The translations under genes and the position numbers were made by a program. This document shows positions 2,836-7,555 of a DNA stretch of 9,170 nt, piece after piece (the stretch's first letter is position 1; every line of letters starts with the position of its first letter). Origin of the DNA: a virus (Duplodnaviria; Heunggongvirae; Uroviricota; Caudoviricetes); IMG/VR virus record IMGVR_UViG_2554235184_000006; one strand, given 5' to 3'. The notes under the pieces are model-generated. The model made no database searches. It saw only the letters and a program-made list of their open reading frames with translations, and was not told the origin of the DNA.

Positions 2836-3134
2836 GTGGTAAATGGGCGGCTGGTGGGTGTGGTGGTTGTTGCTTTCCCGTTGCTGAAAAAGAAAACGCC
2901 AGACTGTTAGCCGGGTATCAGTTAGCGGGAGAAATTTTTAAATACTTCACAATTCAGGCGGTTGACTGTTGTCTGGTTTGCGGGGAGTTTGTTAAAAGAA
3001 ACTGGCATGGTGAATCCCCCTGTGCGGAGGGGCAATCAGCGAGTAGGTATATGGGATAATCGCGGATTCAGGTGCTGGTACTGAATTCACCGGGAGGCAC
3101 CCGGCACCATGCAATGGCACATAGCGCCACTCTC

Positions 3135-3170
3135 CAGCCCCTCTCCGGAGGGGCTGTTTATATTGATTTT
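3135..3170 (+). terminator. Rho-independent terminator at the edge of the AT-rich island
   Basis: Perfect 9-bp stem CAGCCCCTC (3135-3143), loop TCCG, GAGGGGCTG (3148-3156), followed by TTTATATTGATTTT. Sits between upstream + strand transcription and the 3' end of the minus-strand gene 3191..3526. Confidence 0.6.
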
Positions 3171-3190: not shown

Positions 3191-3526
3191 TTATGGACTT
3201 TGTTGTTTTAGCCCATAAGGACATATTTGCAGAGTGCAACGGTTATTAAAGCATTCATTCAATACGTTATCTGTATTTGTAGGGCATTCCTGGCTGTTTT
3301 TGATTAAATTCCAGAATGTTTTATTGAATGGTACTACGTTGTAAATGGTTACAGGTAGCACTTTGTTATTGAGCATGATACCTGTGTGAGTCAGTGTAAA
3401 TATACTTTCAGGAGGTAAGAAAGCATCCGATTGATACCAGATTATTAATTTTATTTTACTCCATATGACTGAAAAAGATATTCCGCATGATGGCTGGATA
3501 ACTGTATCAATCACAATCCACTTCAT
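3191..3526 (-). CDS. Hypothetical Cys-containing protein in an AT-rich island, 111 aa
   Basis: Minus-strand ATG (3524-3526) with AAGGAA RBS 5-6 nt upstream. Composition is strongly AT-rich compared with flanking phage genes. Opposite orientation to the late operon. Six Cys, four of them in the C-terminal [26 protein letters not shown]. No family recognised. Confidence 0.55.
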
Positions 3527-4282: not shown

Positions 4283-4498
4283 ATGTACCAGATGGAAAAA
4301 ATCACAACAGGTGTGTCATACACCACGTCAGCGGTGGGAACGGGCTACTGGTTCCTGCAGTTGCTGGACAGGGTTTCCCCGTCTCAGTGGGCGGCAATAG
4401 GCGTGCTGGGGAGTCTGCTGTTTGGGCTGCTGACATATCTGACTAACCTGTATTTCAAAATCAAAGAGGACCGGCGTAAGGCGGCGCGGGGAGAGTAA
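4283..4498 (+). CDS. S: Class II pinholin (phage 21 S21-like) with dual-start motif, 71 aa
   Basis: ATG 4283 and ATG 4292 (M-Y-Q-M) with GGGAGA RBS (4271-4276). Translation ...[66 protein letters not shown] closely matches the S21 pinholin as I remember it, with two TMDs and a charged C-terminus. The track ORF 4178..4498 is an upstream in-frame extension that spans the terminator. Confidence 0.85.
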
Positions 4499-4502
4499 AG
4501 TG

Positions 4503-5393
4503 ATGAATAAAAAATATGAACTGGTTGTTAAGGGGATAAATAATTACGGGGATAAGGTTACTGTTACTGTGAAGTCGGAAGGTGACGGGCAAGCGTCGCT
4601 GTTGTTGCCAGATGTGGCGATTAGTCTTGACCGTACTGAAGGTGCCACGCTGGAGTTTTACGAAGCTGAGGCGAAAAAGCAGGCGAAGCAGTTTTTCATG
4701 GATGTTGCTGCCGGGTTATGTGAATGGAACGAACCGTTGCCGGAAAAGCGCCCCGTAATTTTAGAGGCGCAGGATGTGTTGATAACCTACAAAGGAAAGC
4801 TACCGGGAAGAATTACTTGTTCTCTGAAGATGCCGCCGTCAACACTGCGGTCAGAAAAAGATGATGTTGAATCACGTATTGAAAAACTGGAGAGCTACGT
4901 CGTTGAGCTGAATAAGAAATGGTCGATATTGGTGCCTTCTGGCGATGAAAAGCAGTTTGCTGCGTTTGACGATTATTGTCGGAAAGTGATGAGCAGAAAT
5001 CTCGCAGAGTGTTTCAGTATTCATAATGATAATTTCAGTGACCCGGAATGGGAGTGTAACCGGCCATCCTTTGTTGTATCCGGTGATGCTGGGAAAATAA
5101 CCATCTCAGAAAATGGGAAAGTAACACCTCCATCGCACCAGCACAGTGAGGAGCTCATTGAATTTGCCATTGATTACCTGAAGAACAATAAAAAGCAGGG
5201 GCTGATGAAGCGCGTTGGCCGTTGCATGGGATATCTTCAGGTAGCCGCTGAGATTGAAGCGCTGGCCAGTGGTGCTGATAAGGATGCAATTGTGCGGGAG
5301 GCTCTTCTTCGTGATTTTAATACTCCACCCTTTAAAAAAGTGCCGGCTTACTGGCTTCATCCGGGGCTGACTTATCTTAAAGTGCGTATTTAG
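4503..5393 (+). CDS. Hypothetical hydrophilic protein inserted between holin and endolysin, 296 aa
   Basis: ATG 4503, 5 nt after the holin stop (TAA 4496-4498), with GGGGAGAG RBS (4487-4494); stop TAG 5391-5393. Long uninterrupted ORF with no TM segment or signal peptide and a K/E-rich composition. No family recognised. Confidence 0.7.
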   Translation: MNKKYELVVKGINNYGDKVTVTVKSEGDGQASLLLPDVAISLDRTEGATLEFYEAEAKKQAKQFFMDVAAGLCEWNEPLPEKRPVILEAQDVLITYKGKLPGRITCSLKMPPSTLRSEKDDVESRIEKLESYVVELNKKWSILVPSGDEKQFAAFDDYCRKVMSRNLAECFSIHNDNFSDPEWECNRPSFVVSGDAGKITISENGKVTPPSHQHSEELIEFAIDYLKNNKKQGLMKRVGRCMGYLQVAAEIEALASGADKDAIVREALLRDFNTPPFKKVPAYWLHPGLTYLKVRI

Positions 5394-5429
5394 TGGGCCA
5401 GGGACAGCGGCTGAATATTTAATATATCC

Positions 5430-5963
5430 ATGAACACCAAAATCAAATACGGCCTGTCGGCTGCCGTTCTGGCGCTGATTGCCGCTGGTGCGCCTGCGCC
5501 TGACATTCTCGACCAGTTTCTGGATGAAAAGGAAGGCAACCACACCACGGCATACCGTGATGGTGCAGGTATCTGGACCATCTGCCGTGGTGCCATCATG
5601 GTGGATGGCAAACCTGTCGTTCCGGGCATGAAGTTGTCGAAGGAAAAATGCGACCAGGTTAACGCCATTGAGCGTGATAAAGCGCTGGCGTGGGTGGAGA
5701 AAAACATCAGAGTGCCGCTGACCGAACCCCAGAAAGCGGGGATCGCGTCATTCTGTCCGTACAACATTGGTCCCGGTAAGTGTTTCCCGTCGACGTTTTA
5801 CAGACGAATTAATGCTGGTGATCGAAAAGGTGCCTGCGAAGCGATTCGCTGGTGGATTAAGGACGGTGGCAGAGACTGCCGTATTCGTTCAAACAACTGT
5901 TACGGTCAGGTATCCCGTCGTGACCAGGAGAGCGCGCTGGCGTGCTGGGGTATCGACAGATAA
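5430..5963 (+). CDS. R: SAR endolysin (phage 21 R-type true lysozyme, GH24), 177 aa
   Basis: N-terminal Gly/Ala-rich weakly hydrophobic segment GLSAAVLALIAAGAPAP typical of a signal-arrest-release domain. Catalytic E-8aa-D-5aa-T spacing is present in EGNHTTAYRDGAGIWT. Overall similarity to P21 R and DLP12 RrrD-type lysozymes, from memory. Confidence 0.9.
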   Translation: MNTKIKYGLSAAVLALIAAGAPAPDILDQFLDEKEGNHTTAYRDGAGIWTICRGAIMVDGKPVVPGMKLSKEKCDQVNAIERDKALAWVEKNIRVPLTEPQKAGIASFCPYNIGPGKCFPSTFYRRINAGDRKGACEAIRWWIKDGGRDCRIRSNNCYGQVSRRDQESALACWGIDR

Positions 5964-6119
5964 GCAGAATATTTTGCTGAAAAATGAGGAATGGCCACGC
6001 GGGCGGATAACACGAAATCCTGCGAACTGGCGAAACGTAAGTGAATAAAAGTAAAAACCCCGTTTGTTGGCACCAAGCGAGGTTTTGTGTTTCTGACCTT
6101 GAGTAAGGCAAGGGAGAAC

Positions 6120-6302
6120 ATGGCGAAGTGTAAACGAATTCTGTTGAGGTTGACTATGAAAAATGGCCTTGAACTGAAAGCGCCTGTAACTGATGACATC
6201 AGCAGAGCACTGGCTTTTGCCATTAAGTGGGTGGCGGTCGGTGTTGCTGTGTCCCCGATGCTGTATGGGCTGGCAAAACTGGTCATTGCGTTGAAATCGT
6301 GA
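6120..6302 (+). CDS. Small protein with C-terminal hydrophobic segment, 60 aa (alternative start 6156)
   Basis: ATG 6120 with AGGGAGA 2-3 nt upstream (short spacing); an alternative ATG at 6156 has GAGG at 6146-6149. C-terminal [27 protein letters not shown] is TM-like. Stop TGA 6300-6302 overlaps the strong RBS of the next ORF. Family unknown. Confidence 0.4.
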
Positions 6303-6316
6303 AGGGAGGATTAAGC

Positions 6317-6448
6317 ATGTCAGACAAACTCATAACGCTGGCGAAGATCCTCTGTGTAATTGTCGGCATTTCATTTTCACTAATGCTGGTTGCTCTTTTT
6401 CTTTCCATGGCCTGGATGATGTTGTCTTCGTCGGGGTTGCTGGGGTGA
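6317..6448 (+). CDS. Small hydrophobic membrane peptide, 43 aa
   Basis: ATG 6317 with strong RBS GGGAGGA (6304-6310). Translation [43 protein letters not shown] is almost entirely one long hydrophobic stretch. Stop TGA 6446-6448 overlaps the alternative Rz GTG start. Confidence 0.5.
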
Positions 6449-6456
6449 ACATAAAC

Positions 6457-6918
6457 CGAATGCTTTCCGCGTTTATCGTTATTCTGCTGGTGGCCTGTGG
6501 TGCGCTGTGGATGGCAACAGACCATTACCGTGATAACGCGATTACCTACAAAGCGCAGCGCGATAACAAAGCCAGTGAACTGAAGCTGGCGAACGCAACC
6601 ATTACTGATATGCAGGTGCGCCAGCGCGATGTTGCTGCGCTCGATGCAAAATACTCGAGGGAATTAGCCGATGCGAGAGCTGAAAATGAAACTCTTCGCG
6701 CTGACGTTGCCGCTGGTCGTAAGCGCCTGCGGATCAACGCCACCTGTCCAGGCTCCGTGCGTGAAGCCCCCACCACCTCCGGCGTGGATAATGCAACCGG
6801 CCCCCAACTGGCAGACACCGTTACACGGGATTATTTCACCCTCAGAGAGCGGCTGATGACGATGCACAAGCAACTGGAAGGGGCACAGGACTATATCCGC
6901 ACTCAGTGCCTGAAATAA
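6457..6918 (+). CDS. Rz: Rz i-spanin (inner-membrane spanin subunit), 153 aa
   Basis: Translation ...[71 protein letters not shown]...[19 protein letters not shown] is nearly collinear with lambda Rz as I remember it. N-terminal TMD present. Start is ATG 6457 or in-frame GTG 6445. Confidence 0.85.
6671..6856 (+). CDS. Rz1: Rz1 o-spanin (outer-membrane lipoprotein), embedded in Rz in the +1 frame, 61 aa
   Basis: ATG 6671 with GAGGGA RBS (6657-6662). Lipobox-like VVSAC followed by the proline-rich [14 protein letters not shown], matching lambda Rz1. Fully nested inside Rz, the classic spanin arrangement. Confidence 0.85.
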
Positions 6919-7228
6919 GTTTTGTTGATGCGCCGTATCGTCGCTATATTCCCTCATTAACAGAGACCGCAGCCCGACAGGGAGACTCCTCTGCGCGAGT
7001 GTGCGGGGATAATTAAAAACGATGCACACCGGGTTTTTACCGCGTTAATGATTCGCGGGTTTATCCCGGTGCGATGGTGGAAGAAACAGGAAGCTGTATT
7101 ACAGAAAGTGCTACTACTGTATCCCGATGCGATGTATGTAATGTGAGTCAGATAATGGCACAGGATGTGGTGATGTGGCAGTCTGGAACACAGGATATAT
7201 TGTCAGAATAAGACCCGTAGGAATAAAA

Positions 7229-7555
7229 ATGAAAAGACGCCTTTTACTACTTTTTCTGTTATCTGTCCTGGCAGTGGGATGCTCGCAGCAAAAAGCTGAT
7301 GAGCCCCGGCAATTAGTGACGGTGTATCCACGATATCCGGAATATGCTGCAGCAAATTATATCAAGGGGCTGGTTGAGGTTAAGTTCGATATTGGTGCTG
7401 ATGGGACTGTGACACGGATCGTTTTTCTCCGCTCAGAGCCTCATAATTTGTTTCGTGATGAAGTGGTGAAGGCCATGGCGAAATGGCGATTTGAAAAGAA
7501 TCGCCCCTGTCAGGGAGTGAAGAGACAATTTATCTTTACGCCGTCACGTCCTTGA
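7229..7555 (+). CDS. Lipoprotein with TonB C-terminal-like domain, 108 aa
   Basis: ATG 7229 with AGGAA RBS (7219-7223). Signal peptide MKRRLLLLFLLSVLAVGC with a relaxed lipobox. The mature part YPRYPEYAAANYIKGLVEVKFDIGADGTVTRIVFLRSEPHNLFRDEVVKAMAKWRFEK fits the TonB_C pattern (compare E. coli TonB GQVKVKFDVTPDGRV...FEREVKNAMRRWRYEP). The track ORF 7175..7555 is an N-terminal extension without RBS. Confidence 0.7.
   Translation: MKRRLLLLFLLSVLAVGCSQQKADEPRQLVTVYPRYPEYAAANYIKGLVEVKFDIGADGTVTRIVFLRSEPHNLFRDEVVKAMAKWRFEKNRPCQGVKRQFIFTPSRP

Follow-up and report, generated by a model that had tools for sequence, protein, structure and literature searches.

Which kind of gene fills the space between the endolysin gene R and the spanin genes Rz/Rz1 of a lambdoid lysis cassette? 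The question is raised by a 9,170-nucleotide (nt) stretch of viral DNA (IMG/VR record IMGVR_UViG_2554235184_000006), here called the window. In phage lambda and in the Qin prophage, Rz comes straight after R. In the window, two short open reading frames (ORFs) on the plus strand lie between them: ORF1, which encodes 60 amino acids (aa) and runs from ATG 6120 to TGA 6300-6302 (6120 to 6302), and ORF2, which encodes 43 aa and runs from ATG 6317 to TGA 6446-6448 (6317 to 6448). A preliminary description made without database searches had noticed both ORFs, and its coordinates and frames were correct. It had also taken R to be normally followed directly by Rz, which is accurate for lambda and Qin but not for the 933W-type group, in which the slot is variable and often occupied. 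What appears to be new here is a hypervariable array of small-peptide genes within a lysis cassette, built of independent modules and containing a bidirectional terminator and a promoter-like block that are linked to ORF1. The preliminary description had missed both that ORF1 and ORF2 are independently shuffling modules of a larger array and that ORF1 has a conserved internal start.

Because ORFs this short are common by chance (108 ORFs of at least 30 aa are present in the 9.2-kb window), the case for real genes rests on comparison. Approximately 180 related loci from IMG/VR and from GenBank phages and genomes were compared, and individual loci are designated below by L and a number. Among unique alleles, the pooled ratio of nonsynonymous to synonymous polymorphism (pN/pS) was 0.20 for the ORF1 core (aa 13 to 60) against 0.54 and 12.5 in the other plus-strand frames, and 0.33 (median, 0.22) for ORF2 against 0.87 and 1.76 in the other plus-strand frames; the reference values were 0.10 for R and 0.40 for Rz. 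Variable sites fell at codon positions 1, 2, and 3 in the numbers 15/3/30 in the ORF1 core (p = 1e-5) and 21/12/26 in ORF2 (p = 0.08). The preliminary description had proposed a check of the reading frames across related prophages, and the frames were intact in 33/33 ORF1 alleles and 23/23 ORF2 alleles. Moreover, both ORFs are retained in two unrelated genomic contexts, and the amino acid motif of ORF1 is conserved into Yersinia and Klebsiella despite divergence of the DNA. We conclude on comparative grounds that ORF1 and ORF2 are genuine coding genes under purifying selection.

Protein genes on the opposite strand (minus-strand ORFs 5906-6286 and 6283-6525) were considered and rejected. An open minus-strand frame over ORF2 gave a pN/pS of 0.37 and was also rejected as a gene, having neither a Shine-Dalgarno (SD) site nor start support; its low ratio is attributed to third codon positions that coincide with those of ORF2 and to the absence of TTA, CTA, and TCA codons.

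At megablast sensitivity, ORF1 was present in 1041/5426 complete Escherichia coli genomes (~19%) and ORF2 in 1499/5426 (~28%), with up to 7 copies per genome. The ORF1-ORF2 module is also carried by the plaque-forming phages PhiR5_2 and PhiR12_x, which grow on K-12. Among 1.84 billion representative proteins, a profile search returned only 20 ORF1 clusters, all of them Enterobacterales or unnamed metagenomic except for one Achromobacter-labeled record; the genera named were Escherichia, Salmonella, Yersinia, and Klebsiella. Gene calls and clusters for both already exist in databases, but neither gene has a name: RefSeq lists ORF1 as WP_001446668.1 and ORF2 as WP_001280932.1, each a "hypothetical protein," and PHROGs offers only function-unknown families, phrog_1115/4493/3246 for ORF1 and phrog_4906 for ORF2. 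Sequence searches of Pfam, NCBIfam, PADLOC, and PDB assigned no family to either peptide, in agreement with the earlier statement that no function was established. For ORF2, Pfam returned only a subthreshold DUF3930 similarity (13 bits versus a cutoff of 25), and the PADLOC defense models gave no match at E <= 1 for ORF1, ORF2, or four further array or neighboring peptides. A profile search of genome contigs with the ORF1 alignment confirmed no locus, the tool being limited for a 60-aa query.

ORF1 has two conserved in-frame starts 12 codons apart, Met1 and Met13, each with an SD. The SD of Met1 (AGGGAG, 6111-6116) is only 3 nt from ATG 6120; the preliminary description was right that both ORFs have an SD. 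Initiation at Met13 (ATG 6156) would give a possible 48-aa short form (6156 to 6302, plus strand) from an ideally spaced SD (GAGG, 6146-6149, 6 nt). The Met13 start and its SD are invariant across all alleles, many database entries begin there, and the short form is the sole open version of ORF1 in Yersinia. Codons 1 to 12 had a pN/pS of 0.92 among unique alleles. Distant ORF1 members retain the N-terminal extension x-x-Y-K-R-I-L-(L/M)-R-(L/F)-T-M, in which codon changes are mostly synonymous (Ile as ATT, ATC, or ATA; the first Leu as CTG, CTC, or TTG), with one conservative Leu-to-Met change (TTG to ATG). Because the extension is kept in this manner, we conclude that the long form is probably translated too.

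The ORF1 peptide has a net charge of +7 and the conserved motif MKNGLE-DAP-VT-EIS. An AlphaFold2 model (predicted local distance difference test score [pLDDT], 75.5) contained a basic N-terminal helix at residues 2 to 15 and a long C-terminal helix at residues 22 to 59, which bears G41xxxS45 and an invariant Y49-G50 pair; the peptide ends in ALKS, 2 to 3 residues beyond the helix. The transmembrane (TM)-like segment that had been noted at the C terminus was therefore recovered as a helix, but its hydrophobicity was just marginal (Kyte-Doolittle [KD] mean, 1.88; Hessa insertion score, +4.0) and about equal to that of the signal-anchor-release (SAR) segment of R (KD, 1.74).

The ORF1 helix resembled the second TM domain (TMD2) of the cassette's own pinholin. 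The Smith-Waterman score was 40, which was reached by only 3/5000 composition-preserving shuffles. The other array peptides compared with pinholin TMD2 gave p values of 0.4 to 0.9. An hhalign comparison of the ORF1 helix with TMD2 returned a P value of 0.029 and a probability below 2%; other membrane proteins tested scored worse. The likeness could be mimicry, convergence, or chance.

ORF2 has one start only, and its SD (GGGAGGA, 6304-6310) abuts the ORF1 stop. The earlier reading of the 43-aa peptide as essentially one long hydrophobic helix was borne out: residues 11 to 29 were strongly hydrophobic (KD mean, 2.89; summed Hessa scale, -3.8), and AlphaFold2 modeled one helix at residues 2 to 38 (pLDDT, 88.5). 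The peptide thus has a short head, a single TM helix that likely lies with its N terminus inside, and an uncharged 12-residue tail, with G17, S19, F20, and S21 conserved. At its 3' end, the ORF2 stop overlaps a GTG codon at 6445 (GTGA). In other alleles, the SD and ATG of Rz lie 9 nt beyond the ORF2 stop. Because the Rz ATG of relatives (ATGAACCGT, MNR...) reads ATA in the window allele, Rz must start here at GTG 6445 or at ATG 6460, the latter being the RefSeq choice. Initiation at GTG 6445 preserves the conserved Arg ahead of the Rz membrane helix and is the likely start in this allele. The stop/start chaining on which translational coupling had been proposed is therefore present at both junctions, ORF1 to ORF2 and ORF2 to Rz.

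The slot after the endolysin falls into length classes of 0, ~300, ~500, ~650, and >1000 nt. It is empty in Qin, mEp460, and PhiR49_2; many Shiga toxin (Stx) phages have ~300 nt with one phrog_6632-type peptide gene; ~500 nt is the window type, ~650 nt is the type of L186, and more than 1 kb is found in 933W-like phages. As many as four small genes, each encoding a single helix, occupy the slot in varying combinations, among them ORF1 followed by ORF2; L134a, an ORF1-like gene, L134c, and L134d; a phrog_6632-like gene, ORF2, and an ORF1 remnant; and ORF1, ORF2, ORF1', and L134d, the last of which is an ORF1 paralogue. An obligate two-gene pair, such as a toxin and its partner, was rejected, as ORF1 and ORF2 are each found without the other.

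The ORF1-ORF2 unit is also found in a different cassette that contains Phage_holin_8, a three-TM (3TM) holin, and a GH108/PG_binding_3 endolysin that is soluble and has no N-terminal membrane segment. In this cassette, which accounted for ~40/134 unique loci, ORF1-ORF2 is followed not by Rz but by a gene for a 65-aa lipoprotein, and no recognizable Rz/Rz1 was found either in the GH108 cassettes or in the whole annotated genome of phiP27. Distant ORF1 relatives lie 3' of a PG_binding_1 endolysin-like gene and 5' of two lipoprotein genes. Three unrelated enzymes are thus encoded upstream in these contexts: the T4-lysozyme-like R of the window, the GH108/PG_binding_3 enzyme, and the PG_binding_1 protein. 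DNA homology between the R/Rz and GH108 contexts spans 6047 to ~6415, whereas homology with L084 spans 6054 to precisely the ORF1 stop at 6302. Across the R/Rz, GH108/lipoprotein, and lambda-R-type contexts, the module borders are 6047/6054, 6302, and ~6415-6448, and because the borders differ between contexts, ORF1 with its upstream hairpin and ORF2 are separate modules. We conclude from these alignments that ORF1 and ORF2 are separately mobile modules of a combinatorial array of small membrane-peptide genes, which fills the slot after the endolysin gene in prophages of lambdoid and related enterobacterial types.

A number of individual loci show further arrangements. L195 (4150-4565) is a myovirus- or tailocin-like tail cluster in which a PG_binding_1 gene is followed by an ORF1 relative, overlapping genes for 68- and 70-aa lipoproteins, and then a sheath gene. 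The 65-aa outer-membrane-type lipoprotein (phrog_7528; L087, 3852-4034; phiP27 locus L188, 3452-3689) is encoded after ORF2 in GH108 cassettes and after Rz in L070. The Yersinia enterocolitica remnant (L189-L192, 4001-4601) adjoins tmcA, has its ORF1-like gene and Rz (PF03245) 1 nt apart, and has a TGnTATAAA extended -10-like motif upstream on the plus strand. Tandem partial duplication of the form ORF1-ORF2-ORF1' was seen in L051 and L058 (~2430-2550), and frameshifted ORF2::ORF1 fusion proteins are present in databases (P0091, P0094, and P0097). As read from these records, the duplication and fusion proteins show ongoing recombination inside the array.

Upstream of ORF1 lies a hairpin (6054 to 6086; AAAACC-C-CGTTTG, loop, CAAGCG-A-GGTTTT) that has an A-tract 5' and a T-tract 3' of its stem and marks the upstream end of the mobile ORF1 module at 6047/6054. 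The hairpin accompanies all ORF1 family members except the Yersinia remnant, whatever gene is upstream. Covariation in the inner stem is seen across at least five sequence types, and 21/21 variants have 5 to 7 (mean, 6) U residues in the 8 nt past the stem on both strands. From its sequence, we conclude that the hairpin is a bidirectional intrinsic terminator and part of the ORF1 module.

Downstream of the hairpin, DNA conservation across the ORF1 family is highest in a 40-nt block (6127-6166), with 85 to 92% identity in L193 and L195, in which the rest is unalignable. The block holds the ribosome site of Met13 and, on the minus strand, a putative sigma-70 promoter (6127 to 6156) predicted from a -35 element TAGTCA (6156 to 6151), an 18-nt spacer, and a -10 element TACACT (6132 to 6127). 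A promoter scanner reported the minus-strand site independently in L087, L193, and L195 (TAGTCA or TGGTCA, 18 nt, and TATACT or TATAAT). The site is at the same register in all 47 alleles and matches consensus at 9 to 10 of 12 positions, except in the window's minority Cys4 allele, which matches at 8 of 12 (TACACT); promoter-like matches were no commoner than in shuffled sequence. The bidirectional terminator lies ~65 to 75 nt downstream of the promoter-like site on the minus strand. Together, the two elements would define a putative cis-antisense RNA of ~75 nt (6045 to 6120, minus strand) that starts at ~6120, is complementary to the ORF1 start and SD, and is predicted to fold into a 5' stem-loop with the anti-SD sequence followed by the terminator hairpin and U-tract. 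We consider it possible, though well below an even chance, that such an RNA covers the ORF1 ribosome site in a layout like that of a type I antitoxin. Scanned by E value against Rfam, the whole window gave nothing in 5964-6460, and the svsR and Pas small RNAs (sRNAs) are located elsewhere in the prophage.

No plus-strand sigma-70 promoter was predicted within 5300-7300 of the window, and none was found between the hairpin and ORF1 in the window, L087, L193, L194, or L195, where only ~30 nt separate the terminator from the ORF1 SD. A plus-strand promoter built on a conserved TATAAA was rejected for the E. coli alleles by manual reading, as there was no usable -35 element or TG extension; the Yersinia remnant alone has a TGnTATAAA. 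We note that L134 (3270-3300) has a perfect TTGACA and TATAAT with a 13-nt spacer directly 5' of its first array gene, and that the hairpin there has no plus-strand T-tract.

What, then, might the peptides do? The comparisons above establish that both ORFs are coding and mobile, that they occupy an operon position with chained stops and starts, and that ORF1 carries its hairpin. On this basis we favor, at a little short of an even chance, the reading that ORF1 and ORF2 are late-expressed, dispensable inner-membrane peptides, chained to Rz, that act on membrane events of lysis through a generic or host-side target. Late cotranscription is the simplest reading, as there is no plus-strand promoter between R and Rz and the stops and starts are chained; both genes would be expressed from the Q-antiterminated transcript shared with S, R, and Rz/Rz1, with translation passing from ORF1 to ORF2 to Rz. 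The peptides would then accumulate in the inner membrane alongside the lysis proteins and would modulate membrane permeabilization or the timing of lysis, not by way of one given holin or endolysin. ORF1, with its weakly hydrophobic Gly/Ser-zipper helix resembling pinholin TMD2, may be silenced outside lytic growth by the terminator and the cis-antisense RNA. Because phages with an empty slot exist, ORF1 and ORF2 are dispensable for lysis. The preliminary description had suggested an antiholin, and a holin-specific one is disfavored, as the module serves both an S21 class II holin and the Phage_holin_8 and 3TM holins and as S has an antiholin form of its own; a generic effect on the membrane at lysis could still apply.

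Several observations weigh against this reading. Qin, mEp460, and PhiR49_2 do with an empty slot, and both peptides lack the charged C-terminal domain that holins typically have. The TMD2-like pattern of ORF1 is not retained in its distant members, and the match is short and was noticed post hoc. The sample took in only two or three types of cassette and is biased by the use of ORF1 as the query. Distant ORF1 relatives lie in tail-fiber and baseplate modules with no lysis gene near, and a species-wide remnant in Y. enterocolitica consists of a 49-aa short ORF1-like gene and Rz, with holin and endolysin lost; judging from these tail-module relatives and this remnant, the function of the ORF1 family may not be tied to lysis. 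The searchable literature yielded no description of either gene and no experimental data, and both peptides are absent from the supplements of the ribosome profiling (Ribo-seq) paper on enterohemorrhagic E. coli (EHEC) Sakai. Ribosome profiling data from K-12 are uninformative, since K-12 Qin, which has the same S-YdfR-R-Rz cassette, has an empty slot.

One rival explanation makes the ORF1 module a type I toxin-antitoxin-like unit, in which a membrane toxin has its ribosome site covered by the ~75-nt cis-antisense RNA and ORF2 is an unrelated neighbor. The unit would be an addiction, abortive-infection, or fail-safe element that moves between prophage contexts, with the antisense promoter inside codons 3 to 13. 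The products are suitably small and single helix (60 or 48 aa for ORF1 and 43 aa for ORF2, in the range below ~60 aa), and the module has moved into lysis cassettes, tail modules, and remnants alike. The promoter-like site recurs in three diverged loci with a fixed 18-nt spacer and 9 to 10 of 12 matches in nearly all alleles, it lies within the most conserved DNA of the family, and the block is partly kept in Yersinia although the upstream frame is closed there by a stop. The pN/pS of codons 1 to 12 is ~0.9. ORF1 keeps its hairpin across all contexts, every variant of which (21/21) makes a good bidirectional terminator, and short antisense sRNAs with shared terminators are known from EHEC prophage late regions. 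However, the two hexamers of the promoter fall on conserved codons (K-Y-K and L-T-M), and the substitutions between them are largely silent (Ile and the first Leu codon) apart from one Leu-to-Met change in distant members; because of this overlap, protein-level selection alone could explain conservation of the block. Moreover, the -10 element is weakened in the window allele (TACACT, 8 of 12), promoter-like matches are equally frequent in shuffled sequence, Rfam has no match, the ORF1 helix is just marginally hydrophobic, and there is neither a plus-strand toxin promoter between the hairpin and ORF1 nor a long regulatory leader. The suggestion of a type-I-toxin-like peptide in the preliminary description thus gains some support, from the minus-strand promoter-like site and the bidirectional terminator, for ORF1 only, and no toxin promoter was found for it. 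We regard the toxin-antitoxin explanation as unlikely.

The mobility of the array might instead be that of moron-type cargo that benefits the lysogen. Weakly expressed from the prophage, the peptides would, for instance, exclude superinfecting phages at the inner membrane, as HK97 gp15 does, or modulate membrane proteins of the host; that they lie in a lysis cassette would be a coincidence. Mosaic composition and varying copy number, both typical of arms-race cargo, are seen in the arrays, whose borders are sharp with shared linker DNA, and the unit is inserted between differing neighbors in different phages. Relatives in tail modules fit this explanation, as does the decayed Y. enterocolitica prophage, in which a short ORF1-like gene and Rz are kept species-wide, and the neighbors are small outer-membrane lipoprotein genes in a late accessory region of bor-type genes. 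Set against this, expression in the lysogen is not expected, since there is no predicted promoter and a terminator lies directly upstream. The PADLOC defense models gave no match, and tight chaining to Rz or to a lipoprotein gene suits an operon member better than an autonomous moron. We consider lysogen-benefiting cargo a rather improbable account.

A further reading would make the hairpin-ORF1 unit a new sort of regulated element of the lysis clock. ORF1 would be a mimic of TMD2, made in two forms from its two starts and silenced outside lytic growth by the bidirectional terminator and the cis-antisense RNA, that late in infection coassembles with holins or depolarizes the membrane and thereby resets lysis timing. 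The array would then serve as a toolkit of swappable mini-genes (ORF2, L134a/c/d, and the phrog_6632 types), exchanged to tune lysis or to resist interference across hosts. We hold this reading to be decidedly unlikely.

That the array is nearly always directly 5' of, and chained to, either Rz/Rz1 or a small lipoprotein gene could indicate that the peptides assist or regulate the spanin or the downstream outer-membrane lipoprotein. Alternatively, the cationic ORF1 (net charge, +7) could be a disruptin-like envelope disruptor in cassettes without Rz/Rz1, such as the GH108 cassettes; phiP27 also has no recognizable Rz/Rz1 in its genome, and spanin-less phages are an open problem in the field. 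Yet the ORF1-ORF2 module occurs both with and without Rz, phiP27 has neither ORF1 nor ORF2, some tail-module relatives have no lipoprotein gene at all, and Rz is chained to its upstream gene even when the slot is empty (rrrQ/rzpQ overlap). Neither peptide can itself be a spanin, since there is no periplasmic domain (at most 3 residues past the helix in ORF1 and 12 in ORF2) and no lipobox. A role of either kind in the last step of lysis is very unlikely.

It is scarcely credible that the ORFs are nonfunctional and conserved merely as young DNA or as spacer or ribosome-coupling sequence for Rz: divergence is indeed modest (mostly >80% identity) and frameshifted and fused variants are found in databases, but pN/pS is well below 1 in the annotated frames only, the ORF1 core has a strong codon-position pattern, and the family reaches Yersinia and Klebsiella with its motif kept and its DNA diverged. 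A releasin that aids exit of the SAR endolysin from the membrane, as gp25 of phage Mu does, is not supported for either peptide and is extremely unlikely, since all that suggests it is the position 3' of a SAR-type endolysin gene, whereas Pfam gave no DUF2730 match, the architecture is opposite to that of gp25 in topology and charge, the pair also follows a soluble GH108 endolysin, and the cassette already has a pinholin; the releasin-type partner suggested in the preliminary description thus fails each testable feature of the gp25 family.

The window is a lambdoid prophage late region from an E. coli host, with the gene order DUF968 gene, RusA, Q, an STnc100-type RNA, an opposite-strand IraM-like gene, a DUF1737 gene, holin, a 297-aa DUF1327/YdfR-family ORF, R, ORF1, ORF2, Rz with embedded Rz1, a TonB_C lipoprotein gene, and the small terminase subunit. 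S, R, Rz, and Rz1 are on the plus strand. The holin gene S (4283 to 4498; Pfam Phage_holin_2_1, 2e-32; also called by RefSeq) encodes an S21-type class II (pin)holin with a dual start (MYQMEK), through which, by its sequence, S already carries its own antiholin form. R (5430 to 5963; Pfam Phage_lysozyme, 2.4e-24; RefSeq product "lysozyme") encodes a 177-aa endolysin of the 933W type with a SAR-like, weakly hydrophobic N terminus (KD mean, 1.74). Rz, the i-spanin gene, spans 6445 to 6918 (Pfam Phage_lysis, 2e-47; start from the junction analysis), and Rz1, which encodes the o-spanin lipoprotein, is embedded within it at 6671 to 6856 (Pfam Rz1, 4.4e-20).

Between R and the hairpin lies a conserved noncoding flank (5964 to 6046, plus strand), with ~86% identity to H-19B and Stx2 phages across 5964-6118. 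The flank (5963-6046) is kept in Stx phages regardless of the downstream content and recurs 3' of the 65-aa lipoprotein gene in GH108 cassettes (~79% identity to L087, 4046-4106). The flank may serve as a linker common to module borders, or it may be a 3' untranslated region element that ends at the hairpin. Elsewhere in the window, an STnc100 sRNA (RF02076) was matched at 2976-3165 on the plus strand (Rfam, 132 bits versus a gathering score of 47), ~565 nt 3' of Q, a position that fits a lambdoid short pR'-tR' late-leader RNA. An IraM-like anti-adapter gene, so named in RefSeq, lies within the late-operon leader (3191-3526, minus strand). The 297-aa DUF1327/YdfR-family ORF between holin and R (4500-5393, plus strand) is a pseudogene in RefSeq; its length ranges from ~104 to 297 aa across relatives, and K-12 Qin has the 103-aa YdfR at this position.

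The lambdoid lysis cassette is among the best-understood genetic programs, yet it houses these uncharacterized genes, which are also carried by relatives of Stx phages. An effect of the peptides on lysis timing or membrane integrity would, if it exists, change burst size and, in Stx phages, toxin release. If an antisense RNA guards ORF1, a new toxin-like family would reside within a phage late operon. Because the array is short, modular, and present in phages that form plaques on K-12, its function is directly testable.

Known systems resemble the array in part. Type I toxin-antitoxin systems include hok/sok, symE/symR, tisB/istR, and ibs/sib, and ORF1 is like them in its small hydrophobic peptide, its predicted cis-antisense RNA with a terminator, its frequency in prophages, and its mobility; it differs in having no toxin promoter or long structured leader, in lying inside a phage late operon, and in matching no Rfam family. 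Lambdoid morons and exclusion proteins include bor, lom, cor, and HK97 gp15. Morons have their own promoter and a downstream terminator, whereas ORF1-ORF2 has no promoter that we could see and a terminator upstream; the two have in common that they are small mobile accessory genes of the late region with sharp borders and a membrane location. The EHEC prophage anti-sRNAs AsxR and AgvB are convergent antisense RNAs of 51 to 60 nt that come from insertion sites in lambdoid late regions and have conserved 3' terminator parts. They lie downstream of pR'/stx rather than between R and Rz and differ in sequence, and the ORF1 antisense RNA is predicted only. Mu gp25, a releasin of the DUF2730 family found only in Mu-like phages, is also a small membrane protein encoded near a SAR endolysin gene. 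In its 99 aa, a TMD at the N terminus (N-out, C-in) precedes an anionic cytoplasmic domain of 73 aa, while ORF1 has a basic N terminus and a C-terminal helix and ORF2 has no soluble domain.

Closer parallels are found among lysis genes. The S21 pinholin/antiholin (PF04971) is encoded in the same cassette, and the ORF1 helix has a W-x-A-x-G-V...S...(Y/F)-G-L pattern like that of its TMD2. Unlike the pinholin, ORF1 has one helix and no charged C-terminal domain, and its module also occurs with unrelated holins; neither ORF1 nor ORF2 matched a holin family in Pfam, NCBIfam, or annotated PHROGs. ORF1 also resembles dual-start holins in having two conserved in-frame starts, each with an SD, although its starts are 12 codons apart and those of holins are 2 to 3 apart. 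In phage P1, the lyz-lydD-lydE operon places small membrane genes directly 3' of a SAR endolysin gene, where they are dispensable but tune lysis in a host-dependent manner; LydD is a proven pinholin with two TMDs and a basic C terminus, and lydE, a small ORF, has shown no phenotype to date. ORF1 and ORF2 have no sequence relationship to the P1 genes, have one helix each and no charged tail in contrast to LydD, and reside in a cassette that already holds an S21-type pinholin. Nevertheless, in both operons small membrane genes with overlapping or chained starts come straight after the endolysin gene, and we conclude that P1 is the nearest precedent for the arrangement seen here.

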